Shown: piece by piece, positions 1,704 to 21,773 of the stretch
Position numbering within the stretch: position 1 is the stretch's first letter
How the letters are laid out: each line of letters opens with the position of its first letter
Sequence record: MT150133.1
DNA: 64,000 bases
Reading direction: 5' to 3' (one strand)
Source: Enterobacteria phage vB_EcoM_IME540
Notes under the pieces: model-generated
What the model was told of the DNA's origin: nothing
What the model saw: only the letters and a program-made list of their open reading frames with translations
Databases searched by the model: none
Program-made: the position numbers and the translations under genes

Positions 1704-1743
1704 TTGATAGGTCTATAGTATCACGTTCCTAGAGGATGTAAAC
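1704..1743 (-). promoter_or_regulatory. early promoter cassette (PeSL-like) copy 1
   Basis: Minus strand reads GTTTACA-N16-TACTATAGACCTATCAA; shared ~40-nt core with 7 other copies. Confidence 0.6.
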
Positions 1744-1752
1744 ACCTAAACG

Positions 1753-1779
1753 AAAAAAGGTCCCACCGAAGTGAGACCT
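1753..1779 (-). terminator. intrinsic terminator (hairpin + U-run)
   Basis: Minus strand GGTCTCAC-TTCG-GTGGGACC followed by TTTTTT. Confidence 0.6.
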
Positions 1780-1783
1780 TTGA

Positions 1784-2167
1784 TTATTCTAACGTTAGCA
1801 AATACTTAGTCTGGTAAAAGACCCCAGTGATATCGTCCAAAGTCGACTGGATGGCCTTAGGAAGGGTATCATAGATTTTATCAGATGCTTTAAGAAGCTC
1901 GTCAAGAAAATCTACCGGGTCCTTAGGCAAGTCTGAAGCAGACGGTAATGATGCTTTATATTCTTTGCCACTGAACCCGAGATATTGCTCGCTAAATTGG
2001 TCCAGCGGTCCTTGAACTTCTACATAATAGAAGTCATATGCTTTGTGTCTTGCATAGCTTTTGGTTTCTAAATGGGCTGACTTAAAATAGGCTAAAGAAA
2101 CCAGTAGCCAACCAATATAAGAATCCACTTCAGACCCTCGACCGGGTACGAAATCATTGAACTTCAT
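1784..2167 (-). CDS. hypothetical protein (127 aa)
   Basis: ORF track; followed downstream by hairpin+T-run terminator at 1753-1779. Confidence 0.5.
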   Translation of the reverse strand: MKFNDFVPGRGSEVDSYIGWLLVSLAYFKSAHLETKSYARHKAYDFYYVEVQGPLDQFSEQYLGFSGKEYKASLPSASDLPKDPVDFLDELLKASDKIYDTLPKAIQSTLDDITGVFYQTKYLLTLE

Positions 2168-2447
2168 CTTCCACCTTCATTAGTTTTGCATAACGCTCTC
2201 CGATGGCGCGACCTTCAATTGAGCACGCTTCTATAGTCCGACAACTTGAAATCTTCCAAGAAGCCGTAACATAGGCCCAATAGTCTTCGGAGGCTTTTAC
2301 GCTGGGTCTACTCATTTGCGCATAAACAGGCATCGCACTACTAGCAAATGCATCCATCAATTTATCGTTGGTACCATTTGCTAGTGAAACTGTAGGGCTT
2401 AAACATCCCGCCATAAGGATACAAGCCGCTGTACGGAAAATATCCAT
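2154..2447 (-). CDS. putative secreted protein/lipoprotein (97 aa)
   Basis: N-terminal hydrophobic segment ending ...ILMAGC (lipobox-like), then hydrophilic body. Confidence 0.4.
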   Translation of the reverse strand: MDIFRTAACILMAGCLSPTVSLANGTNDKLMDAFASSAMPVYAQMSRPSVKASEDYWAYVTASWKISSCRTIEACSIEGRAIGERYAKLMKVEDEVQ

Positions 2448-2693
2448 ACAAAAGTCCTTTGTTGTTTTATACTATTTGCCTTTCGGCCTTAACCGATAGC
2501 GATTACCAAAAGCTAAAGCTCTACGGTTAGTATTATTATTTATAGCTTTTTAAGCTTACGACAATAAGAATAGAACACGTCGTTAAAATTATGCTCAACC
2601 CAATTCCTCTGTATAGGCGAGGTAATGGAAAGCATATAATGCGCTTTAATTAAATCCATCCCATTTTTATTAGGACACTCTTTATTATTAGCA

Positions 2694-2819
2694 TTATACG
2701 TCGCTGCTACAACCTTCTATCTCTCTTTTGTAAGCCACATCATCCATGATAGGCGAAAGAACAATATAAGAAATAGCCACAGCGAACGCTAGAATTAAAA
2801 TCTTTGAATTTAGGTCCAT
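2694..2819 (-). CDS. small hydrophobic peptide (~41 aa), speculative
   Basis: Hand translation: ATG 2817-2819 preceded by GAGGG; MDLNSKILILAFAVAISYIVLSPIMDD...; below ORF-track size cutoff. Confidence 0.25.
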   Translation of the reverse strand: MDLNSKILILAFAVAISYIVLSPIMDDVAYKREIEGCSSDV

Positions 2820-2826
2820 AGTACCC

Positions 2827-3399
2827 TCAACTCGTTATTTCTATCCAGTGCTTCCTGCACAATGACACGTAAGAATCGTTGCCACCTATAGAAACTTGGG
2901 CTCCGTCCTTAATTGCGATACCATCTTGGATACGAGCCGTCATAGTAGCTTTACGGCCGCAATGGCACACACCTTTGTACTCAACGAGTTTATCTGCCGT
3001 AGCGAGTAATTCAGCAGAGCCAGGAAACAGTTTACCCTGAAAATCAGTTCTTAGCCCATAACACATAACTGGAACATTATAATTGTCTACTATCTTCGCC
3101 AGTTGTTTTATCTGTGCAGGTTCTAAGAACTGTGCTTCATCCACAAATACACAGTGGATATCTTTTTGAGATTCAGCCCAACGATAGAACTCGTATAGGT
3201 CCATATCCGGAGTCACGGCATTAGCCTCTTGACTAATCCCTATACGAGACGAAATGCTATGGCTTGATTCTCTATTGTCTACCGCGGGCTTTAAAAGGAG
3301 TACGCCCATACCACGTTCTTTGTAGTTATGAGCTGCCGTTAGCAATGAAGCGGTTTTCCCGGAATTCATCGCCGCATAGTGAAACATCAAGCTTGCCAT
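2827..3399 (-). CDS. tk: thymidine kinase
   Basis: 190 aa; P-loop AAMNSGKTASLL, C-terminal CHCG...SLCRKHW zinc motif; close match to T4 Tk as recalled. Confidence 0.92.
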   Translation of the reverse strand: MASLMFHYAAMNSGKTASLLTAAHNYKERGMGVLLLKPAVDNRESSHSISSRIGISQEANAVTPDMDLYEFYRWAESQKDIHCVFVDEAQFLEPAQIKQLAKIVDNYNVPVMCYGLRTDFQGKLFPGSAELLATADKLVEYKGVCHCGRKATMTARIQDGIAIKDGAQVSIGGNDSYVSLCRKHWIEITS

Positions 3400-4124
3400 T
3401 TAAATACAACTCCTCTATAAGAGCAATTAGGATAACCTTTGCTTATAGCTATCTTTTTAAACATATATGCTGAAGGCTTATTGGATTCTTCCCATAAGAG
3501 TTTTAATTCATCGTAAAATTTCCAAGATTCGTTTCTTATAGGAGAAGGTTTTCCTGCCATAGCGCCCTTTTTACCGTACATGGGATTCTTTTTGCCCTTT
3601 TTGGCGTTACTCATATTTTCTATGGTTTCAGCGCTATGTTTAAATCCTTTTAATTTTTTAGAGGCTAATCCTATTTTAGCTTTATGCTCATCACTAAATC
3701 CTATTCTATTGGAATAATGGTTTAAACCTTTATTAGAAGTGGTGAATTTAGAAGCTTCTATTCTGGCTTTGCTCCATTTAACTCCTTTTCTAGACCTAGA
3801 CATTTTCTGTTTAGTTAAATTAGATAATTTGGTTCCTTTCTTTTTACCTCTTCCGCCATCAGCAAAATTTAAAGAATGCTTACCATATTTTAATTTAGCC
3901 TTTTCAACTAAAGGAATTTCGGCGGCATACGCCTCTTCTTCAGATTCGAAGAATTCTAATATACGAGTTTTATAAGGATGCTTTTTACAAATATTTTTAA
4001 CTACCGTACCACTTCCATAATACCCGTCTGAAAGATTATCAGTGGAGTGTTTACCTACATAGTAATAATTTGCCTTATGGGTTTTTATTACAGTCAAGTA
4101 ATTATAATGGAATTCCTTTGCCAT
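3387..4124 (-). CDS. GIY-YIG-family homing endonuclease-like protein (seg-like)
   Basis: N-terminal YLTVIK...YYYVGKHST...GYYGSG (GIY-YIG variant); basic region with repeated K/G-rich NPMYGKKG (NUMOD3-like) motifs. Confidence 0.65.
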   Translation of the reverse strand: MAKEFHYNYLTVIKTHKANYYYVGKHSTDNLSDGYYGSGTVVKNICKKHPYKTRILEFFESEEEAYAAEIPLVEKAKLKYGKHSLNFADGGRGKKKGTKLSNLTKQKMSRSRKGVKWSKARIEASKFTTSNKGLNHYSNRIGFSDEHKAKIGLASKKLKGFKHSAETIENMSNAKKGKKNPMYGKKGAMAGKPSPIRNESWKFYDELKLLWEESNKPSAYMFKKIAISKGYPNCSYRGVVFKWQA

Positions 4125-4133
4125 ATTACCTTC

Positions 4134-4340
4134 TTAAAGCGTATTCACATAAGCTATTAATTCGTTTTCTTTCTCATCAAATCGATTGACAAATTCTTCC
4201 TGATGTTCGGGAGATAGCGGGCCATATTCATCATAAAAAGAATTTGCTTCTGCATGCTCATCTAGAAGTTCATGGATAAGCTCAAACAATTTATCTTTCT
4301 GTTCTTTACTCAGACTCATAACCATTGTACCTTTAAGCAA
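4134..4340 (-). CDS. hypothetical small protein (68 aa)
   Basis: ORF track. Confidence 0.4.
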   Translation of the reverse strand: MLKGTMVMSLSKEQKDKLFELIHELLDEHAEANSFYDEYGPLSPEHQEEFVNRFDEKENELIAYVNTL

Positions 4341-4528
4341 TATTCTTCTACATGCTGCTTACGTTTATTTTTATCTATAAAAGTATATTCAACATATTCA
4401 CCGATATACCATTTATCGGTGTTGTGTTGACTTTTTATAGGGCATTTAGTTACTCGGGTTTCGGACCAGTGTCGAATAATTTCCGCTTTATTTTTAGGGT
4501 CAAACGGATGCGGGTAATGGGCTTTCAT
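4316..4528 (-). CDS. hypothetical small protein (70 aa)
   Basis: ORF track; overlaps neighbours, start uncertain. Confidence 0.3.
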   Translation of the reverse strand: MKAHYPHPFDPKNKAEIIRHWSETRVTKCPIKSQHNTDKWYIGEYVEYTFIDKNKRKQHVEEYCLKVQWL

Positions 4529-4967
4529 AATCTACCACCACTAAATTAATATCAGGAGTAAACAAATTAATCAATTGGTAAACCTTGTCCCAATCACCAC
4601 CAGCAATACCACAACCGATGCGAGGAATATAAATTCTTGGTTTAAACAAAAGACCTTTTGCTTGTTGATTTAATTCTATCATACAGTTTACTAAAGCACC
4701 GTAATCAAGATTAGGGCCTGGTTCGTATTGGGTGTATAAATTATAGCAAATTTGGCCCTTATTACCTGTGGCTTGAGTAAACGTGCCAAGTTTTTCCAAA
4801 TGGCCTAAATAAGTGGTTTTATCGATAGCGAGAATAGGCGGATAAGCCTTAGCCAATTGCCCAGCTACACCTGAACCCATTGTGTGGAAACAGTTACACC
4901 CGTGTGCAACATTATTACCTTGAAGAAATAGGGCGACAATATCGCCCTTAATATAATCAATAATCAT
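4500..4967 (-). CDS. macro-domain-like protein (putative ADP-ribose binding/hydrolase)
   Basis: 155 aa; motifs GDIVALF...N...GSGVAGQ and C-terminal IPRIGCGIAGGDW resemble macro-domain glycine-rich loops; assignment from motif recognition only. Confidence 0.45.
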   Translation of the reverse strand: MIIDYIKGDIVALFLQGNNVAHGCNCFHTMGSGVAGQLAKAYPPILAIDKTTYLGHLEKLGTFTQATGNKGQICYNLYTQYEPGPNLDYGALVNCMIELNQQAKGLLFKPRIYIPRIGCGIAGGDWDKVYQLINLFTPDINLVVVDYESPLPASV

Positions 4968-5320
4968 TTAGAGTTTAATCCTCGATTGTATGAATCAACG
5001 AGTCTGTCTACCATAGACGCGCACATTTCTTTGTACTTTTTATCAGATGGAATACATTCAGTAACGTTTAGACGTTGCTCGTATCTTTTAGAAAGAGTTT
5101 TCTCTTTCATTCGACGATGCTCTACGTCGTTCTGCCCATCTTTAAAAGCAGCCGTGATTTTTGAACTGAATTCGATAATGCATTCAGTATTACTCGGATG
5201 ACAATAATCTTTTGCTGTACGGGTAGCATACTCGACAATTGAATTATTACTATCATAAACTTGTGACGCTAATACTCCCGGAGCAATCAACATAAGCGCT
5301 ATAGTCATCTGCTTAATCAT
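4964..5320 (-). CDS. putative secreted/periplasmic Cys-containing protein (118 aa)
   Basis: N-terminal signal-peptide-like MIKQMTIALMLIAPGVLASQ; four Cys in mature part. Confidence 0.45.
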   Translation of the reverse strand: MIKQMTIALMLIAPGVLASQVYDSNNSIVEYATRTAKDYCHPSNTECIIEFSSKITAAFKDGQNDVEHRRMKEKTLSKRYEQRLNVTECIPSDKKYKEMCASMVDRLVDSYNRGLNSK

Positions 5321-5884
5321 TTAATATACCGCCTCAAACATCTTTTTAGATTTTAGATAATTGGCCTTTTCTAGAACTTCAGAAGCATATTTACTGCCTG
5401 CTTCGACGTTCCAGCCCGCATTATAAGAAGCAATCGCTTTTCTCAGGTCACCTTTGTGAACATCAATCCAATAAGACAGTTCAATGTAGGCCCAAGAGGC
5501 ACTGTTCTGTCGTTTTTGGACCATACGAATTATTTCTTTGTCTGACATCTTCCAACCTACCTGTTGAACACGACTTCTTAACGTAGGCAAGTAATTTTGG
5601 AACATGCCATAAGCATGGTGCTTATCTTTATTTAAACCCTGATTAATTCCGGCAGATGATTCCTGCCATAGTAATCCGGCCATAATATATCCTAATCCTT
5701 TTTGATTAGGGGTTTCTTTGAACTTTCCCGACTTTTGGTATTGTTCACCGAAAGCATACGCATAATGTAAATTATCGAGCTGGGTTTCTGTAAATACGGG
5801 TTCTGCTGCACTTACAGAAAACGAACCACACATAATAGCCGCTATTAAAGAATATTTAAGTTTTTTTAGAAAAATCATAATCAA
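5321..5884 (-). CDS. putative secreted lytic transglycosylase (SLT-domain-like)
   Basis: Signal-peptide-like N-terminus; motifs LLWQESS ... AYGMFQ ... ASYNAGW match the E-S / GLMQ / AYNxG pattern of SLT domains. Confidence 0.5.
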   Translation of the reverse strand: MIMIFLKKLKYSLIAAIMCGSFSVSAAEPVFTETQLDNLHYAYAFGEQYQKSGKFKETPNQKGLGYIMAGLLWQESSAGINQGLNKDKHHAYGMFQNYLPTLRSRVQQVGWKMSDKEIIRMVQKRQNSASWAYIELSYWIDVHKGDLRKAIASYNAGWNVEAGSKYASEVLEKANYLKSKKMFEAVY

Positions 5885-6590
5885 TAAGTCCTCGGTAATC
5901 TACATTAGGGAAGCCGTTCTTAATTGCGATTTTACTAAATCTTCCACACTTGAGCTTATTATTATCTACCCATAATTTATATAATTGTGAATACATCGGT
6001 TCATGCCATATAGGGGATTTACGCAAAGAGGCTTTTTTCCTTTCTATAGTTTCTTTAGAATTTTGTATGGCTTTAAATTTTTGTCTATTTTCAGGATTTT
6101 CAAAATACTTAACCCGTTTTTCAGACATTTTAGCTTTTACTTTTGGCGAATTTAAAATTTCTTTGAGCCGTTCTTTAGAGCCTTCCTTTTCAAAATACTT
6201 TATTAAAGCCATTGAATGAGCAGCCCTATTTTCCTTTTTAGAGAAAAATAAAATTTTATTAATAGATTGCAATTTTGAAAATGATTCTTTAGCCAACTTA
6301 TAATTTTCAGAATCTACAAAATAAGACCTTTGTTTTGAATTTGAAGTAGAGCTCATATTTAACCAGGCAAAATTCAACCCATAGTGGTTTGGATTAGCTT
6401 TGGCTAGATACATATGGGCCAAATAATGTTCATCAGCATAAAGCTCAACTAAATTGTCTTGAGTGTCAGGACCACCAACACAACTCGGAATTATATGATG
6501 CTTTTCTGTATAGGCGTCATTAGGTGTATCCCTAGATAAGGCCGCATTTATTATTTTATAGTAGTCATATGGATATTTTATAGTTTCCAT
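5856..6590 (-). CDS. HNH-family homing endonuclease-like protein (mob-like)
   Basis: N-terminal EKHHIIPSCVGGPDTQDNLVELYADEH (HNH motif); basic C-terminal region; C-terminal KIAIKNGFPNVDYRG module shared with the ORF at 3387-4124. Confidence 0.65.
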   Translation of the reverse strand: METIKYPYDYYKIINAALSRDTPNDAYTEKHHIIPSCVGGPDTQDNLVELYADEHYLAHMYLAKANPNHYGLNFAWLNMSSTSNSKQRSYFVDSENYKLAKESFSKLQSINKILFFSKKENRAAHSMALIKYFEKEGSKERLKEILNSPKVKAKMSEKRVKYFENPENRQKFKAIQNSKETIERKKASLRKSPIWHEPMYSQLYKLWVDNNKLKCGRFSKIAIKNGFPNVDYRGLIDYDFSKKT

Positions 6591-6597
6591 ACTGTCC

Positions 6598-7056
6598 TCA
6601 CAAGTAAATTACTTTCGTGCTGGTTTTACCTTCTAAACGTTTAGAGTTAACAAATGCCATACGACATTTAAGGGAATATCCTTTATCAGGATGTTTACGG
6701 TCTACTGTCATACCTAGCCATAAGGTTTTATCGGTAATTTCGAGACGCAATGGCCGATACACTTTACCAGGGACAATTTCGGATTCTACATCAGGCAGAG
6801 GTTCCTGGATTAAGAATTCATGGATTTCTTTAACATGGTTATGGAGTTGCTTGAATAAAGCAAAAACGTATTTTTCGTCGATTTCACGTTGGATAGCACG
6901 GTCCAACAAGTGGTTAGAGTACTTAATAAAGAAGGCTGGGACTCCGCTCTTAATGGCGGCTTTTTTGATGGACGTATTCAGTTCACGGAATTCGGTTTCG
7001 AACTGACGACGTAATTTATTGCGGCGGATGAATACTTCTGAATTAATTTCTGACAT
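6598..7056 (-). CDS. regB: RegB-like endoribonuclease
   Basis: 152 aa; EVFIRRNKLRR...HLLDRAIQREIDE...LEITD..LWLG resemble T4 RegB as recalled; position between tk and denV as in T4. Confidence 0.6.
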   Translation of the reverse strand: MSEINSEVFIRRNKLRRQFETEFRELNTSIKKAAIKSGVPAFFIKYSNHLLDRAIQREIDEKYVFALFKQLHNHVKEIHEFLIQEPLPDVESEIVPGKVYRPLRLEITDKTLWLGMTVDRKHPDKGYSLKCRMAFVNSKRLEGKTSTKVIYL

Positions 7057-7073
7057 TTTGTAATCTCCTGTAG

Positions 7074-7113
7074 TTGATAGGTCTATAGTACCACGTCTAC
7101 AGGAGATGTAAAC
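7074..7113 (-). promoter_or_regulatory. early promoter cassette (PeSL-like) copy 2, upstream of regB
   Basis: Same core; flanked by inverted repeat CTCCTGTAG / CTACAGGAG. Confidence 0.6.
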
Positions 7114-7117
7114 TGCT

Positions 7118-7327
7118 TTATTCTTGGAATGGGGTAAGTTTTCCAGCAGCTGAACAAATTTCTACCAGTACAGGGTAAAACTCTTTCACTTGTTCAAGGC
7201 GTTGGGCTGCATACTGTACTTCACCTTCTTCGAGACAAGCCATTTGGTCGTCAAGCAAGTATTTGTGGTAGCCAGTACAGGCTTCACCGATGATACGCTG
7301 GAAATCTTGTAAACTTTCAATTTTCAT
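7118..7327 (-). CDS. hypothetical small protein (start taken at ATG overlapping upstream stop, ATGA)
   Basis: ORF track 7118-7369; internal ATG at 7327 gives translational coupling with upstream ORF. Confidence 0.4.
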   Translation of the reverse strand: MKIESLQDFQRIIGEACTGYHKYLLDDQMACLEEGEVQYAAQRLEQVKEFYPVLVEICSAAGKLTPFQE

Positions 7328-7605
7328 CAGTATTTTTCCTCGGGTTGGAAAACGGAACGACACGCCCACATACTTGCTTCTTTCAGACGGTCAATTGCAT
7401 TACGAATCTGGGTGATGCGTTCATGAGCCTGGTCTAGTTCTTGTTCAGAAACCTCTTCGGTATCTAAGTTCATATAATGAGTAACATGTTCTTCTTCCAG
7501 AGCTTTAAACATTAACCCAAGACGAACTTCAGCATCTTTGATAGCGTTTACTTTACCGATTTTATCGTCGGTATGCGGCTTATAACCCTTGATATCTTCA
7601 ATCAT
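7327..7605 (-). CDS. hypothetical small protein (92 aa)
   Basis: ORF track; position in regB-denV interval. Confidence 0.45.
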   Translation of the reverse strand: MIEDIKGYKPHTDDKIGKVNAIKDAEVRLGLMFKALEEEHVTHYMNLDTEEVSEQELDQAHERITQIRNAIDRLKEASMWACRSVFQPEEKY

Positions 7606-8633: not shown

Positions 8634-8793
8634 AGTAGTCTCTTAGTGGTGGGGCCATTCCTTGGCACATAATTCGTCCATGTATCCGTATGTAAACCCT
8701 TTACCGCACTTGGGCTCGACCTTATTACAGGTAGGGAAAGGTCCATCACTCAGAGGACGCGACGTTCATGAGGAGAGGGCCGGCTTGCCTTTA

Positions 8794-9093
8794 TTAGAAA
8801 GAACCAGAACCTCTAATTGTGTTCTGGCGACCTTTATTTTCTAATTCGGAGTGGTCGATTTCATATGCTTGTGCTACGCCAAAGGCCTTTTTAACTTTAG
8901 CTAAAGAACCTTTAGATGTAACAATATTAAAAGTATTACCTTTGGTAAAATCAACAAAATCGACTTGTACGCCCTGTTTACCGAGGCTTGCTACAATAGC
9001 ATCAACATATTCTTGGTCTAAATTGCCTTGAACTCCAATTTGAAATGCTTTAGGAGCTTTGGCTTCTGTGATAAATTCTTGATAAGTTTTCAT
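8794..9093 (-). CDS. internal-protein-like (capsid-targeted) protein, ipII position
   Basis: N-terminus MKTYQEFITEAK matches the T4 IP capsid-targeting sequence MKTYQEFIAE; adjacent to denV as ipII is in T4. Confidence 0.6.
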   Translation of the reverse strand: MKTYQEFITEAKAPKAFQIGVQGNLDQEYVDAIVASLGKQGVQVDFVDFTKGNTFNIVTSKGSLAKVKKAFGVAQAYEIDHSELENKGRQNTIRGSGSF

Positions 9094-9136
9094 TGTTATT
9101 CCTTAAGTTGATAGAAGTATTCTATCACGGATTTAA

Positions 9137-9553
9137 TTAAGCGTAAATAGCCTTGCCATAATGTTTGTACCAGGTAGGACGCTGTGCAATTTTTTCATCC
9201 AAACGGGTCTGAGATATAGCAATAGAAGCTTCGTGTGGAGTATAGTCACCACGGAATTCCTGAGGAATGCCACTAATGTCCTGGACAGTAGTATCCTTGA
9301 TATTAAAACCACGTTTTAAACATTCGGCTATAAGCTCAATTTGTCGCTTACGTAAAAATTCAAGCTTATCGTAAAAGAATGTAACATGGCCTGTGCCAAG
9401 GATAAAAGTAGGACTGATTTTGAAATCACGGACACGTTTACCATTAGCAACATGCTTACGAACTGCACCGAAAACACGTGGTAATTCACGATATTCAGCC
9501 ATTAAGTGTTGGTCGGCCAATTCAGATACTAAGGTAAGGTTGATACGAGTCAT
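9137..9553 (-). CDS. denV: endonuclease V (pyrimidine dimer DNA glycosylase)
   Basis: 138 aa, near-identical to T4 DenV as recalled ([34 protein letters not shown]...). Confidence 0.93.
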
Positions 9554-9570
9554 TTTTTAATCTCCTGTAG

Positions 9571-9610
9571 TTGATAGGTCTATAGTATCATGCCTACAGG
9601 AGATGTAAAC
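9571..9610 (-). promoter_or_regulatory. early promoter cassette (PeSL-like) copy 3, upstream of denV
   Basis: Same core; flanked by inverted repeat CTCCTGTAG / CTACAGGAG. Confidence 0.6.
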
Positions 9611-10490: not shown

Positions 10491-10494
10491 AATA

Positions 10495-12492: not shown

Positions 12493-12705
12493 TTACTTTT
12501 TGTTGAAAAAGTACATTTTACCTTTAGGGGATAAGGATACACGAAGTGCGTTACCAATACCAACTGAACATTTAACCAGGTCAGCAGATTTCAATTCACC
12601 AAATGCTTGACGAAGGTCACCGTCACGAGTGTTAACCATCAGGCATTTAGCACCAGCTGCACGAACTTCGTTTAACATGTTGATTGCTTGGTTAGAAAGT
12701 TTCAT
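12493..12705 (-). CDS. hypothetical small protein (start at ATG 12705)
   Basis: Track ORF begins with TTG at 12783 inside the promoter cassette; ATG at 12703-12705 is preceded by GGAG and the leader AGTGAAATGGAGAATAAAATG. Confidence 0.45.
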   Translation of the reverse strand: MKLSNQAINMLNEVRAAGAKCLMVNTRDGDLRQAFGELKSADLVKCSVGIGNALRVSLSPKGKMYFFNKK

Positions 12706-12731
12706 TTTATTCTCCATTTCACTCTGTTGTT

Positions 12732-12771
12732 TTGATAGGTCTATAGTATCACACCTATAGACCTTGTACAC
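12732..12771 (-). promoter_or_regulatory. early promoter cassette (PeSL-like) copy 4
   Basis: Same core with GTGTACA -35 variant; inverted repeat AGGTCTATAG / CTATAGACCT. Confidence 0.55.
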
Positions 12772-13762: not shown

Positions 13763-14002
13763 TTAAATTTCAGCGACGTAATCGTTATGCAATTCCCACA
13801 TATCATCAGAATTATTCTTAATGATAGGAATTATCTCATTAGAGATTTCTTCAGCATAAGGGTCATTGATACAGTGGGCATCTTCAAAACGAACACCGTA
13901 ATCAGACTTCTTATAAGAGAAGCCATAAATCTTTTTAAACTTGGCGCGAGTAATGCGTACCGGTTCATTAGACTTATCGGACATCGGAGCGTAATACCAC
14001 AT
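13763..14002 (-). CDS. hypothetical small protein (79 aa)
   Basis: ORF track. Confidence 0.4.
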   Translation of the reverse strand: MWYYAPMSDKSNEPVRITRAKFKKIYGFSYKKSDYGVRFEDAHCINDPYAEEISNEIIPIIKNNSDDMWELHNDYVAEI

Positions 14003-14045
14003 ATGTTCTCCTCATGTTTGTGTAGGGTAATAGTAACATGATTTT

Positions 14046-14396
14046 CTAGAGTTGTACATCACTTCTGCAATATTCTAAAAATAATTTATCATTGTCTACT
14101 GTATCCCAACGACGCCAAGACGGGTTCCAGACCAAAGCGTTGTCACCACAATCATTGAGCTTAAAATGGTCGTAGTACATAGCTATGTGTCTAGTCTCGT
14201 CACCAGAGAACCCCAGTATAGGCTCACCGTGGGTGTGATACATATGATGGTGCATTGAGAGGTCGCATTTGTAAAACATCTCACGTTTACCACGAACGAA
14301 CAAGAAGGCCTGTCCATTCATATAGAATTCTTTATTTGTTTTCAAAAGATATTTGAATACTGAATCTTTATGCATAAGTCCTCCTACCACATCCAT
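14046..14396 (-). CDS. hypothetical protein (116 aa), His/Cys-rich
   Basis: ORF track. Confidence 0.45.
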   Translation of the reverse strand: MDVVGGLMHKDSVFKYLLKTNKEFYMNGQAFLFVRGKREMFYKCDLSMHHHMYHTHGEPILGFSGDETRHIAMYYDHFKLNDCGDNALVWNPSWRRWDTVDNDKLFLEYCRSDVQL

Positions 14397-14851: not shown

Positions 14852-14861
14852 TTTTATCACC

Positions 14862-15074
14862 TTAGCAAGACATAGAGGATGTAAACCAGAAACCTTCACC
14901 ATCTGGGATACCGTAATCATCACGGGCCCATTCATAATCATCATATTCCGGATTCTTTGGAGAAATGTATTGTCCACGACCAGAAACATGGAACTCTTCA
15001 CCCGTTTCGTCAGCCACGGCCTGGCCTTTACGTACTAATTCGCGGATTTGTTTTTCAATTTCATCAATAGTCAT
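14862..15074 (-). CDS. small acidic protein, member C of C-terminal-Cys paralog family
   Basis: MTIDEIEKQ... ends ...GFWFTSSMSC. Confidence 0.55.
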   Translation of the reverse strand: MTIDEIEKQIRELVRKGQAVADETGEEFHVSGRGQYISPKNPEYDDYEWARDDYGIPDGEGFWFTSSMSC

Positions 15075-15083
15075 TTTATTTCC

Positions 15084-15365
15084 TTAACATTCAGAAGAAG
15101 AGGACACCCAACCGCCATTTTCTAGGCTGGTGGTGTAATCATGCTGGTTTACAATAGCATACTGGGCTTCACCGTATTCTTCCCAGTGGGCAAGGTCGGC
15201 TTTCAAGGCGCCAGGAGAATAATAGTCACCGCCCATACCGCGAGCAGGGTATATATTAAAATGAGTCTCATATTTGTTAGCAATTTCCTCGGCACGACGA
15301 ATAGCTTTATGGATATCATTTACTGCGTCAGCCAGCTCTTTATTTTTACGGTAATCATTCATCAT
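15084..15365 (-). CDS. small acidic protein, member B of C-terminal-Cys paralog family
   Basis: ends ...ENGGWVSSSSEC; Gly/Tyr-rich middle. Confidence 0.55.
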   Translation of the reverse strand: MMNDYRKNKELADAVNDIHKAIRRAEEIANKYETHFNIYPARGMGGDYYSPGALKADLAHWEEYGEAQYAIVNQHDYTTSLENGGWVSSSSEC

Positions 15366-15374
15366 AGCGTTTCC

Positions 15375-16015: not shown

Positions 16016-16544
16016 TTTGAACCTCTTTAGCGTATTCGCGACATTCAGTAATAAAACGATTAAGTTTACGTTGTTGTTTACGAATCTCTGATGTATACTC
16101 ATTGGCTAAAATAATAAGCTCATCTTTATCGTAATTTTTAATATCCGAATAACTCGGGCGGCGGTCGACCATACCAAAGTGGTCACCATTTTCTAACATC
16201 AAATAGCATACTAAATGGTAATCATCGTCGGCATCAACAAGCTGTTTATAATCGCTTGGTTCATTTAAAGAGTATACTGAATAGCGTAGCCCAGCGAATT
16301 CCACTCGTTGAATAGCCAGATTTACGTCAATAATTTCTAAAGCATCTGCAAAAGAAAGGTCCTCAGCTAAAGCAAAGATAAAGGGTAATTTGGTAGTATG
16401 CCCACGGCTAGATGTTCTGCTTAAGAAATCGTTTGAATAACCTAGGTCTTGGCGAATTCTATAAAGAACTGCATTAGTTTCATGTGAAAGACCACTATGT
16501 TTAAACCAATCAATATTTGATATCAGGTCGTCGTATAAACTCAT
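16008..16544 (-). CDS. hypothetical protein (178 aa) with C-terminal NRFITECREY motif
   Basis: ORF track. Confidence 0.5.
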   Translation of the reverse strand: MSLYDDLISNIDWFKHSGLSHETNAVLYRIRQDLGYSNDFLSRTSSRGHTTKLPFIFALAEDLSFADALEIIDVNLAIQRVEFAGLRYSVYSLNEPSDYKQLVDADDDYHLVCYLMLENGDHFGMVDRRPSYSDIKNYDKDELIILANEYTSEIRKQQRKLNRFITECREYAKEVQNA

Positions 16545-16592
16545 AATATTCTCCTCTCCTCCAAATAGGGAGACCGAAGTCTCCCGGTAACA

Positions 16593-17186
16593 TTACTTAA
16601 GTGAATTAATGTAGTCTTCGATATCAGCAGAAGTCGTATCCATTCCAACTTGCGGGCCTTTAAACGTTTCTACGCGCATCAGGGTGTCTTCGATATCAAT
16701 CTTGGTCAGTGCAGCAATTTCAACAACATCGTCGGCAGTAGCAATACCAAGGGCAGCCATATTACGAGTTTCACGGATGTACTCGAGCTTAACAGCCAGT
16801 TCCTGACGAGAGTCATCAAGTTCCTTAACCTTCAGTTTAATTTCATTACGCATTTCGATATAATCATCGGCTTTCTTACGAAGCTGAGTAGCTGTACGAC
16901 GATAAAGGAGACCGAGTTTAGCATGTACCTGGACATCAGAGCCTTCGGCAATCAGTTTACGAATTTCACGTTCTTTAGAAGCAGCGAGCTGGTCTTTTTC
17001 ATTAGCCAAAGCACGAATACGTTTTTCTTCATTCACAGACTTAACATGAGCAGTCTGGAGTTCAGTGATTTTATCAATCAGAGTAGAAGCAGCTTTGGTG
17101 TATTGGTCTTCGATTGACAGGTTCTGAGCCATTGCGGTGCCCAGTTTAGAACGAATGAATTCAACGATTTTCTTTAAAGTGTTCAT
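16593..17186 (-). CDS. coiled-coil protein, possibly PspA/IM30-like
   Basis: Start at ATG 17184-17186 with GAAGGA SD; predicted long helical/coiled-coil protein with N-terminal amphipathic FxxIVxxI pattern; assignment tentative. Confidence 0.35.
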
Positions 17187-17262
17187 AGTATTTCCTTCAG
17201 TTGGTTGATATTTTGTAATCCATGAGGACATTATACCCTGTCCTCTGAGGTTTGTAAACATT

Positions 17263-17661
17263 TTATTTCATTTTTGCGAGGCAGATTTCATTGGCTTCCC
17301 ATTGAGCTTGCTTAATAATAGCTTTGGATACAGGAGCCCTTTGCCCATAAGTTTTTGACGTTGAGAGAACAATACATTTGTTTGCTTCATTATGCCAGCC
17401 CCATGATTTTTCGCCATGAGTACCTTTAACTACAGCTGACACCTCAACAGAGCAACCGCCATCAGAAATCTTGGTTTCGACAACCCATTCATTTCTCTCA
17501 GCAGCTTCAATTTCTAATCTAGTTTTTTCTTCATACATCGCGGCCCAATCAGTTTTTGCCAAGTTGAAAGTAAGAGCTTTCTCTAATTCTTTGGCATATT
17601 TTTGTTGTTCAGGTGTTAATGAATTATACAACTCTTGCATTTCTTTATCTTCGATATTCAT
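17263..17661 (-). CDS. hypothetical protein (132 aa)
   Basis: ORF track. Confidence 0.5.
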
Positions 17662-17719
17662 TATGTTCTCCTCAAATTATGGGCTCATAATATCTTAATC
17701 ATGAGCCCATGTAAACGTT

Positions 17720-17983
17720 TTATTTCATATTATTGAAATAATTTTCTGCATCAAAATCATTACCATGGTAAACTTTGGTAGACGATTTGGCGTAACCTTC
17801 AGCTGAGAACATATTAATCACAACTTTAATTGTATACCACTGTCCATCTTCATTACCCATTACTGCATAGGTTTCATACACCGGGTGTTCAGGACCGATA
17901 ACCTTAATATCGTTAACTGTGGCACCAAATTCTTCCGGAACGCATTTCATAAAGAAATTAAACACTTCACCATAATTATCCAT
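17720..17983 (-). CDS. hypothetical small protein (start at ATG 17983)
   Basis: Track start is GTG at 17998; ATG 17981-17983 preceded by GAAGGAG; promoter cassette immediately upstream. Confidence 0.5.
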   Translation of the reverse strand: MDNYGEVFNFFMKCVPEEFGATVNDIKVIGPEHPVYETYAVMGNEDGQWYTIKVVINMFSAEGYAKSSTKVYHGNDFDAENYFNNMK

Positions 17984-18007
17984 TTTACTCTCCTTCACTC
18001 TGTTGTT

Positions 18008-18047
18008 TTGATAGGTCTATAGTATCATGTTTAAAGGAGGTGTAAAC
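18008..18047 (-). promoter_or_regulatory. early promoter cassette (PeSL-like) copy 5
   Basis: Same core; lies between terminator 18069-18099 and gene start 17983. Confidence 0.6.
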
Positions 18048-18068
18048 ATCTTTTTTAAACTTTTAGAA

Positions 18069-18099
18069 ACAAAAAAGGCCCAACCTTTCGGAAGGGCCG
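18069..18099 (-). terminator. intrinsic terminator
   Basis: Minus strand GGCCCTTCCGAAAGGTTGGGCC followed by TTTTTT; downstream of ORF 18104-18658. Confidence 0.6.
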
Positions 18100-18103
18100 T
18101 GAA

Positions 18104-18658
18104 TCAGTTCTTGTAGAACCGGAACGGGTTTATGTGGAAGGCTAACATAGCCTTAGGGATTTTACGAGACAAAAGACTCTTAAGTTTCCAACCACAGTAC
18201 ACGCGAAGGTAAAAGGTAATTCCACCTACTTTAAGATACGGAACCGAAGCAAAGACTCCCCATGCTTCATCATTCCACATCCATAACCAACCATGGTGAG
18301 CTTTATCAGGAGAACCAGATTCTACATCAGGATTACCGCGATAATGGAATTCTGAACTACAATCACGTCCTAGTTTATGATAAGCAAAGTTATAAGCTTT
18401 ATTTCGCCATAGCCAAGCTACTCTCTGGAGGTAAACACCACCAGGCATTTTCCTGATTTTAGCCCAACGTTTAATATGACCTTTGTCGCCATCAATTGGA
18501 TTATCGTATGTCATCATCCAATCAAAGCCATAAGGCAATTTACCGGTCTTTTTATTGTAGAAAGGAACTACAAAAGGCGCAAGGATAACGGCTAGAACCA
18601 TAGAGATAAAATCCAGCGGGACCAACAGAATCCAACTCAAATATTTTAAAAGTTTCAT
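18104..18658 (-). CDS. hypothetical membrane-anchored protein (184 aa), Trp-rich
   Basis: N-terminal hydrophobic segment; followed downstream by terminator 18069-18099. Confidence 0.5.
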   Translation of the reverse strand: MKLLKYLSWILLVPLDFISMVLAVILAPFVVPFYNKKTGKLPYGFDWMMTYDNPIDGDKGHIKRWAKIRKMPGGVYLQRVAWLWRNKAYNFAYHKLGRDCSSEFHYRGNPDVESGSPDKAHHGWLWMWNDEAWGVFASVPYLKVGGITFYLRVYCGWKLKSLLSRKIPKAMLAFHINPFRFYKN

Positions 18659-18691
18659 ATTATTTCCTAAGTTAGTTTACTACATATTTAT

Positions 18692-18722
18692 ACAAAAAAG
18701 GCCCAACCTTTCGGAAGGGCCT
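18692..18722 (-). terminator. intrinsic terminator (same hairpin as 18069-18099)
   Basis: Identical 22-nt hairpin followed by TTTTTT on minus strand; downstream of tRNA/small-RNA region. Confidence 0.6.
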
Positions 18723-18952
18723 TTAACCTAGGGTAACCTTGTCGGGGTTCCACCTGCTAGGCAAGTGTTCGGTGCGCCGTTTCAGCTGTGATAGTAAAGA
18801 GCCAGAACACAGTAAAACTGTGGGAGGAACTATACTCCAGGGAACATCAGTCCGACGACTTACCGGTAGCGACCCGGTTTCTTGTTTGGTGCGCCGGTGA
18901 ATGCTGGTAATCAGTCTTCATACGACGGCTTGACTATATAATAGTCTTCATT

Positions 18953-19027
18953 TGGTATCCCGCCCTGGGATCGAACCAGGACCGCAAACTTAGAAGGATC
19001 GTATGCTATCCATTACACCAGCGGGAC
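18953..19027 (-). tRNA. tRNA-Arg (anticodon UCU), CCA encoded
   Basis: Reverse complement GTCCCGC...GATCCTTCTAAGTTTG...CCTGGTTCGATCCCAGG GCGGGAT ACCA folds as cloverleaf: 7-bp acceptor, T-arm with TTCGATC loop, anticodon loop CTTCTAA; one T-T mismatch in anticodon stem. Confidence 0.7.
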
Positions 19028-19032
19028 GTAAT

Positions 19033-19698
19033 TCAAAATTTTATTTTACGGCCTTTATTCCAACCTTCAGGAATAATATCCGTTTTGTTAATACGTTTAG
19101 AAACTTTTTCTTCTAAAGAATGAATCCACATTTTTCCATATCCGGAATTATTTTCACCTTGTTGGTGTTTATTTCTGGCGTGAGATTCTTTCATTTTATT
19201 TTTGGTTTCATCTGAATGGGTCTTACCCAAGAAAGATTTAGTATTTGAAAATTTCTCTCTATACTTAGGATTATCCCAAAGTTGTTTAAACCTTTCCGAA
19301 CCCATTTTACGATATTTTTCTTTAAGGTCTGGGTCGTTCTCAAATCTGGTTTTAAAAGCGGCAACTCCTTTTAAGGAAGCTTCTTTCTTTTTATCTAAAT
19401 ATTCTTCAGTGTTTAAATGGTCCCAACCACCTTCACCACCTAATTTCAAATTATAAACATCAGGGCGCTTTAAAAACTCTTCAGTCACAATATTCTTTTC
19501 TGACTCAAACATAGAGGTTTTATCGTCAAAGAACTCTAATATTTCTTTAGAGAAATTTTCTATACCGTATTTGACCTGGGCCCTTTTTAAGAGTTTACCA
19601 GAACCAAAATATGCATCATTCAAATTTTCGGTTGAATGGGCGCCTATATAGATTTTATTATTAATTTTGTTTGTTATTTTATAAGTGTAATGGAACAT
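19033..19698 (-). CDS. GIY-YIG homing endonuclease-like protein (segB-like, within tRNA cluster)
   Basis: N-terminus YTYKITNKINNKIYIGAHST...YFGSG; sits between two tRNA genes as segB does in T4. Confidence 0.7.
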   Translation of the reverse strand: MFHYTYKITNKINNKIYIGAHSTENLNDAYFGSGKLLKRAQVKYGIENFSKEILEFFDDKTSMFESEKNIVTEEFLKRPDVYNLKLGGEGGWDHLNTEEYLDKKKEASLKGVAAFKTRFENDPDLKEKYRKMGSERFKQLWDNPKYREKFSNTKSFLGKTHSDETKNKMKESHARNKHQQGENNSGYGKMWIHSLEEKVSKRINKTDIIPEGWNKGRKIKF

Positions 19699-19739
19699 AA
19701 ATATCTCCTATTTCTAAGAGTATTTATGTTCTCAAAATA

Positions 19740-19810
19740 TGGCCCTGGGTGGAATCGAACCACCATCCAGCGATTATGAGTCGCTCGCTTGACCGTCCAG
19801 CTACAGGGCC
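19740..19810 (-). tRNA. tRNA with anticodon CAU (Ile2-type or Met); CCA not encoded
   Basis: Reverse complement GGCCCTG TA GCTGGACGGTCAAGC G AGCGA CTCATAA TCGCT GGATG GGTGG TTCGATT CCACC CAGGGCC A; perfect anticodon and T stems. Confidence 0.75.
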
Positions 19811-19815
19811 TTAAA

Positions 19816-20088
19816 TCAAACTACAAATCCAGCAGGAGCATTATCATCTTTAGCCATGTGCTGAATTGTATGATAAGTCATTTCTTCAGGAGCAACCAGA
19901 TAAGCCGCAGCGTTAACTAGTGGAATTATTTTTGGTTTAGCGAATGTGCTATCGGCAATTGCCATAAAGGGCTCGCCATCAGTCTCAACTTCGCCAAATT
20001 GACATTCATATGAAATAGAACAACGTTTGGTAGTTGTTGTCTTGGTTTCTGGGTCGTAAAAAGCTAATTTTAATACTAACATAAACAC
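19816..20088 (-). CDS. hypothetical small protein (90 aa)
   Basis: ORF track. Confidence 0.4.
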   Translation of the reverse strand: MFMLVLKLAFYDPETKTTTTKRCSISYECQFGEVETDGEPFMAIADSTFAKPKIIPLVNAAAYLVAPEEMTYHTIQHMAKDDNAPAGFVV

Positions 20089-20256
20089 CTCAAATAAAAT
20101 TAAGTAAAGTAAGTTTGATTAATAGACCTTGTCTATTATGAAAGGTTCTTTGAGGGAAGAACCTTTGGTAATAGAGGGTATTAATGATAGAGTAATAATA
20201 ACACATTACTCTTAAAGCATATTACTATTTTTAGGAATAGTCTGGTCAAATTTGAT

Positions 20257-20547
20257 TCATTGTGGCCACATATTAATGTAATCAAGTTTAATAGAAGCAA
20301 TCTTCAAAGGATTTTTAAAGATGTCGTATTCGATCAATCCGTTTTCAGTTGCGGTGTAGAAAGTAAAGTTAACAGAATTATAACGGCGACCATTAACTTT
20401 TAGTTTAACGTCGCTTGAACTACGACCAATATTAACCTGTTGGACATCAAGCACAGCACCTTTGCCAAAGTTGCGAATCAGTAGCTCTGCTGCAACCTGG
20501 TCTGAATTATAGCCATTCTCTGGATTAGTAACCTTAACGTATAGCAT
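20257..20547 (-). CDS. hypothetical protein (96 aa)
   Basis: ORF track. Confidence 0.45.
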   Translation of the reverse strand: MLYVKVTNPENGYNSDQVAAELLIRNFGKGAVLDVQQVNIGRSSSDVKLKVNGRRYNSVNFTFYTATENGLIEYDIFKNPLKIASIKLDYINMWPQ

Positions 20548-20955
20548 TTAACCCTCGTCTACAATAGTATGGGTATTAGCATTAACAATCTGCCACCAGT
20601 CACAGTCAAAACGATTAGAACCGTAACGAGGCTTTTTCTCATTTTCGTTAATAATATCACGTAGTTCGTCTTCAGAAAATGCTTTAGCGATTAAATCGGT
20701 ATAGCCGCCACGTGGATAATAGTTATCACCTGCGAACAGAAGGAAATTTACTTTACCAGAAGGAACATATGCTTCCTTAGGATACTTGTTTCCTGCTTGG
20801 TCTACCACTTCAATATAACGGTAAGGAATATCGGTACTTTCAACCCATTGCCAAGCTGCAGCAGGGGATTCAAAAGCATCTACACCTAAACGGTTATCTT
20901 CATCTTTAGACGGATTATTTTCATAATCCGCATATACATAATATTCAATGTTCAT
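20548..20955 (-). CDS. hypothetical protein (135 aa)
   Basis: ORF track; adjacent stop/start with neighbours. Confidence 0.5.
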   Translation of the reverse strand: MNIEYYVYADYENNPSKDEDNRLGVDAFESPAAAWQWVESTDIPYRYIEVVDQAGNKYPKEAYVPSGKVNFLLFAGDNYYPRGGYTDLIAKAFSEDELRDIINENEKKPRYGSNRFDCDWWQIVNANTHTIVDEG

Positions 20956-21140
20956 TATTCACCTTTAGAGATTTTATCCATAACGAAAGAAATTGAACCA
21001 ATTAAGAATGCCACTACTAAAGAGATTATATTCTCGGAAGTTGAAAGCATATCGAGCATGAATCCTGCAAACATACTAAAGCCAAAAGCAGTAACAGCGG
21101 CCAGTGCAGTAACATTTCTAATTAATTCACAAGGTTTCAT
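20955..21140 (-). CDS. small membrane protein (~61 aa)
   Basis: Start at ATG 21138-21140 with leader GGAGAATAAAATG identical to that at 12705; two hydrophobic helices. Confidence 0.45.
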   Translation of the reverse strand: MKPCELIRNVTALAAVTAFGFSMFAGFMLDMLSTSENIISLVVAFLIGSISFVMDKISKGE

Positions 21141-21165
21141 TTTATTCTCCAATCACTCATTTGTT

Positions 21166-21206
21166 TTGATAGGGCTATAGTACCATCACTAAAGCCCGTT
21201 GTAAAC
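21166..21206 (-). promoter_or_regulatory. early promoter cassette (PeSL-like) copy 6
   Basis: Variant core TTGATAGGGCTATAGTACCA with inverted repeat GGGCT / AGCCC. Confidence 0.55.
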
Positions 21207-21208
21207 AA

Positions 21209-21481
21209 TTATTTTAAATAAATTGCATATTTTTTATAACCAGCCGTCTCGTGGCGCAGCCCTTTTTCATTAGCAAAACGTTCAATATTGTTAATTTGAT
21301 TCTGGTCGAGTTCTGAAGTATCAAATACAAAAAAGTTTCGCTTATTGCCTAAAGTTACGTGATTAGTCAAATCGATGTTATAGAGATGATTTATATTATC
21401 AATCATGGTCTTAACAGATTTGTTAATTTTTACTTCTTCATTAAGAATAGATTCAGCGATAAATTCTTGGTATGATTTCAT
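21209..21481 (-). CDS. internal-protein-like (capsid-targeted) protein
   Basis: N-terminus MKSYQEFIAES (capsid-targeting-like). Confidence 0.55.
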   Translation of the reverse strand: MKSYQEFIAESILNEEVKINKSVKTMIDNINHLYNIDLTNHVTLGNKRNFFVFDTSELDQNQINNIERFANEKGLRHETAGYKKYAIYLK

Positions 21482-21482
21482 T

Positions 21483-21707
21483 TTATTCAGCGCCAGCAGC
21501 TTTCAAAAGTTTTTTAAGATTGGCTATGCCGCCAGCAGAAAACGTGACCTTGCCACCTTTTTCATTGATAGAGCCAGTCAATTTAGCAAGCTTATCACTA
21601 GGGACTTTTTTAAAATCAGCCAGTGTGCCATCAAAGGTTTTTGTAACAATTGGCAGTTCATCTTCATGTCTTTTAGCTTCGGTGATAAATTCTTGATAAG
21701 TTTTCAT
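21483..21707 (-). CDS. internal-protein-like (capsid-targeted) protein, ipI position
   Basis: N-terminus MKTYQEFITEAK; located next to 57B as ipI in T4; promoter cassette upstream. Confidence 0.6.
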   Translation of the reverse strand: MKTYQEFITEAKRHEDELPIVTKTFDGTLADFKKVPSDKLAKLTGSINEKGGKVTFSAGGIANLKKLLKAAGAE

Positions 21708-21733
21708 TTTGATTTCCGTTTGGTTAGTTTGTT

Positions 21734-21773
21734 TTGATAGGTCTATAGTATCATGCCTATAGACCTTGTAAAC
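21734..21773 (-). promoter_or_regulatory. early promoter cassette (PeSL-like) copy 7, upstream of ipI-like gene
   Basis: Same core; inverted repeat AGGTCTATAG / CTATAGACCT. Confidence 0.6.

Follow-up and report, generated by a model that had tools for sequence, protein, structure and literature searches.

What does an early-promoter-like sequence of about 40 nt do when it recurs, each time with an inverted repeat, along one strand of a phage genome? The question is raised by Enterobacteria phage vB_EcoM_IME540, of which a stretch of 64,000 nucleotides (MT150133.1), called the window below, was analysed. The window belongs to a Dhakavirus, a T4-like phage of the JS98/Bp7/MX01 group, and is 94-98% identical to ABTNLS3, MX01, Bp7, IME08, AnYang and KIT01. 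According to the annotation of these relatives, its first 22 kb correspond to the T4 nrdC.11-mobD-rI-tk-vs-regB-vs.x-IP-denV-e-nudE-e.x-tRNA-IP-57B region (IP, internal protein), all on the minus strand. A preliminary description of this DNA had listed eight such cassettes and had suggested that the stem is selected as well as the promoter. In our reading, to which we give a probability of about 0.6, the repeats are sigma-70 early promoters with a hairpin formed in read-through RNA; the hairpin would insulate cistrons and, in the class in which the promoter spacer pairs with the Shine-Dalgarno (SD) sequence, would mask the SD.

Early promoters and their embedded stems

The 17-mer TACTATAGACCTATCAA was found on the minus strand of the window in seven exact copies and in one copy with a single mismatch (AGCCCT), against a chance expectation of 0.24 matches with up to three mismatches allowed (Table 1), and thus the eight copies claimed earlier are present. 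Every copy is preceded at a distance of 16-17 nt by the -35 sequence GTTTACA (GTGTACA at 12771), and the SD and the ATG of a minus-strand open reading frame (ORF) follow 17-35 nt downstream, in agreement with the promoter context proposed before. All eight satisfy the T4-type early promoter (Pe) pattern, which consists of GTTTAC(A/T), a spacer of 16-18 nt, the extended -10 element TGn and TAnnAT, one of them with GTGTAC. A scan with the generic sigma-70 consensus was uninformative and was abandoned (63 sites compared with 58±8 in shuffled sequences); significance was obtained only with the family-specific pattern. The genes downstream of the copies, in the same orientation, are orthologues of T4 early genes: regB, denV, the IP genes, e.6, e.8, trna.4 and ORFs of the mobD region. 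The GTTTAC/TGn/TAnnAT sequence, this gene context and the T4 denV promoter, which carries the same 17-mer and stem and is identical to the window's in 48 of 49 positions from the -35 to the SD, support the assignment of the copies as T4-type early promoters.

Seven of the eight copies lie within 1.7-21.8 kb, the mobD-tRNA hyperplastic region. Exact 17-mers were found at 73 loci in IMG/VR and about 14 times per 170-kb genome in two complete relatives. The weaker variant mentioned earlier could be located at 9108-9148, and three early-promoter-like sites lacking the 17-mer, at 17716, 17259 and 14059, are additional to the preliminary description. The common leader at 12705 and 21140 has the form AGTGA-n2/3-GGAGAATAAAATGAAAC, the two lengths differing by 1 nt. 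Terminators had been placed ahead of several copies; they were found for two of the eight (P1720 and P18024), but not for the rest. An Rfam scan of the whole window returned two tRNAs only; none of the known RNA families was matched at the cassettes. The 17-mer was also observed behind a MotA-box-like sequence, AAGGATGCTTAAAT, at middle-promoter spacing in three IMG/VR contexts, thus the -10/discriminator module may be common to early and middle promoters.

In order to obtain z-scores (z), the stretch from the -35 to the ATG was folded as RNA and compared with shuffles. The inverted repeats quoted in the preliminary description are real sequences; however, instead of a single stem around a TAGTATCA centre they represent two different structures. 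In type A (spacer:SD) the 5' arm is an anti-SD (TCTCC...) which begins with the first spacer base after GTTTAC, and the 3' arm is the SD region. The window examples are regB and denV (ATCTCCTGTAG/CTACAGGAGAT at P7090 and P9587), with the entire 17-mer in the loop, and 5' arms found family-wide include ATCTCCTGTAG, TTCTCCTCATG, ATCTCCATTAG, CTCCAGTAG, TTCTCCTCTGGTT and others. In type B the pairing partner of the spacer is the end of the -10 together with the discriminator, in a helix that stops at about -1; this was seen with AGGTCTATAG/CTATAGACCT (P12748, P21750) and with GGGCTtTAGT/ACTATAGCCC (P21182). Type C (discriminator:SD) occurs at denV of MX01, KIT01 and IME08, the promoter of which differs from that of the window and where the discriminator GTGTTCTC pairs with the SD GAGAACAC (z -3.5). 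Of the eight copies, folding was strong in P7090, P9587, P12748 and P21750, marginal in P21182 and P18024, and not distinguishable from shuffles in P1720 and P56937 (Table 1). When all 12 window promoters were considered, z was -2.8 or lower in five and approx. -2 in three more, and two others had an upstream terminator hairpin.

In both type A and type B the 5' arm is always part of the spacer and thus upstream of the -10. A hairpin in the promoter's own transcript is therefore impossible, and the structure has to act either in DNA or in RNA begun further upstream. The conserved core contains a 5-bp inverted repeat of TGATA (extended -10) and TATCA (start region), e.g. at 9571-9591, which closes the large loop of the type A hairpins in the RNAfold prediction and might contribute to the conservation of TATCAA.

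The covariation test suggested for the flanking stems was run family-wide, on the IMG/VR 17-mer loci and the window searched with a relaxed early-promoter pattern (139-171 unique contexts, the number varying with the flanks required). A perfect stem of at least 8 bp that links the spacer to the segment from the -10 to the ATG was present in 40 of 148 unique contexts (27%), compared with 0.65% of spacer shuffles, and more than 20 distinct arm sequences were involved. In case of type B, the spacer holds the reverse complement of its own discriminator 5-mer in 36/116 comparisons (31%) and that of other classes in 43/2320 (1.9%), and at least nine discriminator classes are matched by their own spacers. 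The sole mismatch in the 17-mer set of the window (AGCCC, 21182) pairs with GGGCT of its own spacer. A fixed-register alignment of 30 type A candidates gave 70.9% paired cells (61.8±1.7 in shuffles) and a covariation score of 0.353, compared with 0.235 in shuffles (0/500 as high) and 0.10-0.19 in slid controls. Among the regB promoters of seven Dhakavirus relatives, none of the 22 arm positions was variable, while seven of the 17 loop positions outside the -10 were (p=0.0013). The compensatory variation pointed out in the preliminary description was borne out by these comparisons, which support selection on the flanking stems.

An inverted repeat could also be the operator of a dimeric DNA-binding regulator of the early promoters, and in several copies the repeat is indeed a palindrome of the conserved CTATAGACCT. 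However, the arms of other promoters are wholly different with their complementarity kept (GAGGACA/TGTCCTC, ATGGGCTCAT/ATGAGCCCAT, TGATAGGACTA/TAGTCCTATCA and others), and the loops vary from 4 to 25 nt. Because of this variation of the arm sequences the dimeric operator was rejected, and we regard it as extremely unlikely.

Site of action of the hairpins

Mismatches inside the stems were G.T or T.G in eight arm pairs and A.C in none. In 19 of 27 representative promoters the sense strand folded better than the antisense strand (-17.05 vs -15.06 kcal/mol, p=0.001; p=0.015 for the z-scores). Stems of at least 8 bp were present in 2 of the 31 contexts with an upstream intrinsic terminator and in 42 of the 108 without one (p=3.6e-4), and the same contrast by gene group was 2/14 vs 22/47 (p=0.033). 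Embedded stems and upstream intrinsic terminators appear to be nearly exclusive alternatives, not companions. The isolated P56937, which has no co-directional upstream gene, carries a weak stem. The restriction of mismatches to G.U, the better folding of the sense strand, the 3' arm that is often precisely the SD, the near-exclusivity with terminators and the weak stem of P56937 favour a role in read-through RNA, and we infer that the stems act in the sense strand of such RNA.

The near-exclusivity with canonical terminators is also in line with stem-loops that are themselves terminators or attenuators of upstream transcription, as has been put forward for those of the promoter early stem-loop (PeSL) elements, and limit read-through rather than translation or decay. 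A stem-loop of one PeSL element of RB49 cut downstream lacZ as strongly as rrnB T1 (Arbiol 2010, PMC2839356), and the type B geometry is that of the RB49 stems overlapping the -10. However, the window hairpins are followed by AUCAAAAC..., UUAAAAAAUG or UUACAAAAUG, that is by no U tract, and for this reason the embedded stems were not taken as intrinsic terminators. The stems are AT-rich and of 7-13 bp only, and termination would leave unexplained why the 3' arm is frequently the exact SD and why an anti-SD stands beside the -35. This explanation seems rather unlikely to us.

Repeats of this kind may also arise without any function, through templated mutation at quasi-palindromes and through gene conversion between the copies of the promoter. 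T4 is known for templated mutagenesis at such sites, and the promoter copies clearly homogenise. However, such an origin predicts neither the position rule (spacer for the 5' arm, SD or discriminator for the 3' arm) nor the G.U bias, the terminator exclusivity, or the SD pairing that is kept with different sequences in T4 and Dhakavirus regB, and thus it is considered very unlikely.

The accessibility of the SD was calculated by partition-function folding. The start was placed 7 nt beyond the -10, an assumption in keeping with the C-rich positions -3 to -1 noted for T4-like early promoters. SD pairing proved to be bimodal: in 35 of 171 contexts the SD was more paired in the read-through RNA than in all 20 upstream-shuffled controls, where approx. 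eight were expected. The type A and type C families make up this group, regB and denV included, and the unpaired probability of their SD was about 0.00-0.02 in the read-through RNA compared with 0.36-0.87 in their own transcript. In case of P7090 (regB) and P9587 (denV) the GGAG lies inside an 11-bp helix of -18 to -19 kcal/mol, and the corresponding values were about 0.00 and 0.4-0.7. [quoted passage not shown] A translational gate on regB fits these reports of early shut-off, limited production, self-cleavage and structure blocking RegB.

The mechanism that we propose is as follows. The promoters consist of an UP-like A-tract, GTTTAC, a spacer of 17-18 nt with TGn at its end, TACTAT and the discriminator AGACCT, and transcription presumably begins with the A of ATCAA. 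RNA polymerase leaves spacer, discriminator and leader positions free, and in about a third of these promoters they encode a hairpin that can form solely in RNA started at an upstream promoter and reading through. In type A the read-through RNA would be translationally silent for the downstream gene and its GGAG shielded from RegB, and the short promoter-proximal transcript would keep the SD free. In type B the structure may be an intercistronic hairpin, serving as a decay barrier or attenuator at cistron junctions without intrinsic terminator. Since about 40 nt are nearly identical in about 14 copies per genome, the cassettes could moreover offer the homology needed for an exchange of adjacent genes and of promoter halves.

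Several points weigh against this reading. Mean SD accessibility over all promoters was 0.38 in the read-through RNA and 0.39 with shuffled upstream sequence (p=0.62); this limits SD masking to a subclass, and the idea that all hairpins mask the SD was dropped. In type B the SD stays free, and no part of the proposal is weaker than the role of this type. The stems are weak or marginal in four of the eight flagged copies, and the embedded hairpins of the window, having no U tract after them, are unlike efficient intrinsic terminators. The promoter contexts are phylogenetically non-independent, and the set collected by regular expression includes some false promoters. The anatomy of the sequences, the selection on the stems, their geometry relative to the -10 and the hybrid promoters are shown by the data. 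Inferred from the sequence are the start site, the presence and amount of read-through RNA, an action at the RNA level, SD masking and an effect on translation or decay, with the stabiliser or attenuator role. The breakpoint statistics and the largest inserts, both described in the next section, also speak against it.

Gene exchange and further features of the window

According to the preliminary description the cassettes flank shuffled accessory genes. When the window was compared with seven relatives, 114 of 136 indel edges fell at gene junctions. Breakpoints were found at nine of 11 promoter junctions and at 21 of 42 others (odds ratio 4.5, p=0.089), and since this enrichment is just a trend, the strong statement that cassettes bound variable genes was rejected. 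The claim is kept in a weaker form, for which this trend and the hybrid promoters speak, but the p value does not, nor does the identity of the three largest inserts specific to the window, all of them homing endonucleases (3387-4124, 5856-6590 and 19033-19698, all on the minus strand). The first of these has a NUMOD3 motif. The second matches phrog_655 with no Pfam hit and is absent from all seven relatives. The third, with GIY-YIG and NUMOD3, is placed between tRNA-Arg (18953-19027) and tRNA-Met (19740-19810), like segB in T4.

Within the promoter core, exchange can be seen nonetheless. The denV promoter of the window is a hybrid, in which the upstream flank and GTTTACATCTCCT of the ipIII-side promoter of MX01/KIT01 are joined to a denV promoter of the Bp7/T4 type. 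In the family-wide set identical leaders are joined to four different spacers, and one chimera, in which TCTCCATTAG is combined with CTACTGGAGG, has mismatched arms. The regB and denV promoters of the window are near-identical paralogous copies, while the two of T4 differ.

Hybrid promoters and promoter swapping would also be expected if the inverted repeats acted in DNA, either as a cruciform or hairpin or as about 40 bp of homology, and the stems were maintained as a recombination signal mobilising promoter-plus-gene cassettes. The breakpoints at promoter junctions agree with this, and PeSL mini-circles have been shown in RB49 and phi1. However, the breakpoint enrichment is non-significant, homology by itself requires no inverted repeat, G.T-only mismatches and better sense folding are unexpected of a symmetrical DNA cruciform, and neither the SD complementarity nor the terminator exclusivity is predicted. 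An action in DNA is thus regarded as unlikely, and a hairpin in read-through RNA as the preferred explanation. In the eLife 2022 paper on T4 amplification the recombination joints were not linked to early promoters.

Other variable segments were noted as well. The IP genes 8794-9093, 21209-21481 and 21483-21707 share a common leader and the MKTYQEF capsid-targeting start (21448-21484, 21674-21710, 9064-9106), and the IP-gene indels relative to ABTNLS3, AnYang and KIT01 use this leader repeat of about 40 bp, not the promoter core. A 43-bp stretch at 15069-15111 aligns twice to ABTNLS3, IME08, AnYang and SP18, where it bounds about 165 bp of extra sequence absent here; no promoter was recognised in it. 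A segment of about 210 bp (7121-7328; ORF 7118-7369, phrog_2037) is present in the window, IME08 and AnYang and absent from MX01, ABTNLS3, Bp7 and KIT01, one of its edges being 7 nt upstream of the regB -35. The positions of the promoters and terminators are given in Table 1.

Table 1. Predicted early promoters and intrinsic terminators of the window, with their gene context and predicted pairing (arms written spacer side first).
Feature	Position	Strand	-35	17-mer	Gene or context	Pairing and fold
P1720 early promoter	1704-1743	-	GTTTAC 1738-1743	1704-1720	drives 78-aa ORF 1450-1686	weak bulged spacer:SD pairing, TCCTCTAG (1729-1736) with CTAatGAGGA (1694-1703); z -1.0; SD predicted paired in read-through RNA
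Intrinsic terminator	1750-1781	-			directly upstream of P1720	UUCG-loop hairpin and T run
P7090, regB early promoter	7054-7113	-	7108-7113	7074-7090	ATG 7054-7056	anti-SD arm ATCTCCTGTAG (7097-7107) with SD arm CTACAGGAGAT (7063-7073); -18.3 kcal/mol, z -3.8
P9147, weaker early-promoter variant	9091-9148	-	ATTTAC-N18-TAGAAT...TATCAA		upstream of IP gene 8794-9093	z -2.0
P9587, denV early promoter	9551-9610	-	9605-9610	9571-9587	ATG 9551-9553	anti-SD arm 9594-9604 with SD arm 9560-9570; -19.3 kcal/mol, z -5.8
P12748 early promoter	12703-12771	-	GTGTAC 12766-12771	12732-12748	drives 70-aa ORF 12493-12705	spacer:discriminator, AGGTCTATAG (12755-12764) with CTATAGACCT (12737-12746); z -2.8
Early-promoter-like site	14000-14059	-	ATGTAC-N18-TACTAT TACCCTACAC	none	upstream of ORF 13763-14002	weak spacer:SD pairing, z -0.5
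e.6 early promoter	17184-17259	-	GTTTAC-N18-TATAAT	none	e.6	7-bp spacer:discriminator repeat, GAGGACA (17239-17245)/TGTCCTC (17224-17230)
Early promoter	17659-17716	-	GTTTAC-N18-TATTAT	none	ORF 17263-17661	10-13 bp spacer:discriminator hairpin, ATGGGCTCAT (17701-17710)/ATGAGCCCAT (17679-17688); -20.1 kcal/mol, z -5.5, among the best of the window
P18024, e.8 early promoter	17981-18047	-		18008-18024	e.8	mere 6-bp CTCCTT/AAGGAG pairing, z -1.8
Intrinsic terminator	18071-18098	-			upstream of P18024	GGCCCTTCCGAAAGGTTGGGCC and T6
P21182 early promoter	21138-21206	-		variant TACTATAGCCCTATCAA 21166-21182	drives trna.4-like ORF 20955-21140	spacer arm GGGCTTTAGT (21188-21197) covaries with A-to-C change in discriminator arm ACTATAGCCC (21172-21181); z -2.0
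P21750 early promoter	21705-21773	-		21734-21750	IP gene 21483-21707	spacer:discriminator hairpin 21757-21766/21739-21748; -16.8 kcal/mol, z -5.7
P56937, isolated early promoter	56900-56961	-		56921-56937	drives 88-aa ORF 56636-56902 (phrog_6003); cassette and ORF antisense between late genes 23 (major capsid) and 24	weak stem, z -1.2

Comparison with known systems

The promoters of the window resemble the T4 Pe consensus in the UP-like A-tract, GTTTAC, TGn, the -10, the conserved positions after the -10 and the C-rich -3 to -1, and ...CTATCAA at the start region is common in T4 promoters. They differ from it in the dominance of the discriminator AGACCT in Dhakavirus, because of which the exact 17-mer is repeated so often per genome. 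A table of transcription start sites covering the whole T4 genome was not found in the literature.

Embedded stems are present in T4 as well. In a 48-kb stretch of this phage, stems of at least 7 bp were found in 6 of 13 promoters, compared with 2.8% expected. Promoter-embedded hairpins of 10-15 bp (z -4.2 to -5.8) were seen at 29991, 34798, 37414 and 45940 of NC_000866, which correspond to the mobD.2a side, regB, denV and ipI. The hairpin of the ipI promoter is TGATGAGGTA/TACCTCATCA, and the mobD region has a 14-bp type B stem. The coding sequence of T4 regB is 61% identical to that of the window; its promoter sequence is different and again provides for pairing of an anti-SD with the SD (-22.4 kcal/mol, z -5.8; two of the pairs are G.U). 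This hairpin would sequester the GGAG cleaved by RegB.

A design rule of the T-even phages may be tentatively proposed, which would hold for regB, denV, ipI and the mobD region of T4 too, although we would not yet bet on it: each co-directional early junction would have either a terminator or a promoter-written hairpin that exists in read-through RNA only, and the anti-SD class would limit translation of regB and denV to their own immediate-early transcript, never to delayed-early read-through RNA. An action of the stems in read-through RNA, if confirmed, would explain how packed early genes with overlapping transcripts can be timed individually at the level of translation, e.g. that of the toxic nuclease RegB, and also why spacer and discriminator positions supposed to be neutral are conserved. 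The same architecture is found in T4, where genetics and reporters are easy. Annotators and phage engineers would be warned that with such a promoter, once deleted or replaced, a translational gate is lost too.

Taken as an entry in a catalogue, the finding is of small value, since promoter/stem-loop cassettes have already been described for T4-type phages and PeSL-like early promoters are expected in a Dhakavirus; it is real but mostly ordinary, and the useful part is the proposed mechanism, for which the sequence statistics provide a clear and testable case. PeSLs were defined in RB49 and phi1, with stem-loops mostly in the interval that separates the -35 from the -10 or overlapping the -10 (Arbiol 2010, PMC2839356), and were extended to PST/T4 and nt-1/KVP40 (Comeau 2014, PMC4122927); JS98 is mentioned in the PeSL literature merely as having 'PeSL-like' sequences. 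The window elements share with the PeSLs of RB49 and phi1 the repeated early promoter with stem-loop, SD and start codon, the concentration in hyperplastic regions and the proposed part in gene shuffling. Structurally they have what defines a PeSL, an early promoter with a stem-loop within or adjoining it, ending in SD and ATG. The RB49 hairpins GGGGGTA-gtaata-TACCCCC have exactly the type B geometry, with G/C-rich arms. However, RB49 PeSLs have TTGACA/TATAAT and G_n/C_n stems, while GTTTAC/TACTAT and variable AT-rich stems are characteristic of the window, and the spacer:SD geometry is outside the five PeSL subclasses (PMC2839356) and was not seen in the RB49 sample.

The T-even 'PeSL-like' elements combine a T4 early promoter with an AT-rich stem-loop; they were noticed first at two IP loci by Repoila 1994 and are called analogues, not homologues, of PeSLs (Arbiol 2010, PMC2839356). 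These loci, denV-ipII-ipIII-e and trna.4-ipI-57B, known from the same phage lineage and with the same type of promoter (TTTACW-N17-TAYWAT), fall inside the window, which makes the PeSL comparison of the preliminary description apt. The stem-loops of PST/T4 are described as lying just upstream of the promoter (Comeau 2014, PMC4122927). Such a position corresponds to the terminator class, while the class catalogued in the window is the embedded one. In contrast to the reports on the T-even IP loci, the embedded class extends beyond them, to regB, the neighbours of e.6 and e.8 and the mobD region, and this in Dhakavirus. The spacer:SD geometry, the terminator exclusivity and the G.U bias were not found in Arbiol 2010 or Comeau 2014, Repoila 1994 and Miller 2003 being outside the scope of this comparison. 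These similarities support the view that the cassettes are the T-even analogue of PeSLs, a kind of element already known.

A second likeness is that with the T4 genes e, soc, 49 and I-TevI, where the SD is held in a helix of the long transcript and a promoter lying within the DNA for the 5' strand of this helix frees the SD. In the same way, the SD of P7090 and P9587 is predicted to lie in a stable helix of the long transcript, and the transcript of the internal promoter to be without the 5' arm. However, the internal promoter of the T4 genes is a late (gp55) promoter, TATAAATA, which results in late-only translation, while that of the window is a sigma-70 early promoter, and translation is therefore predicted only from the promoter-proximal early transcript. 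By this analogy the window element would work like the e/soc type without being a member of that set, and under the design rule, if true, it would mirror lysozyme's late-only gate.

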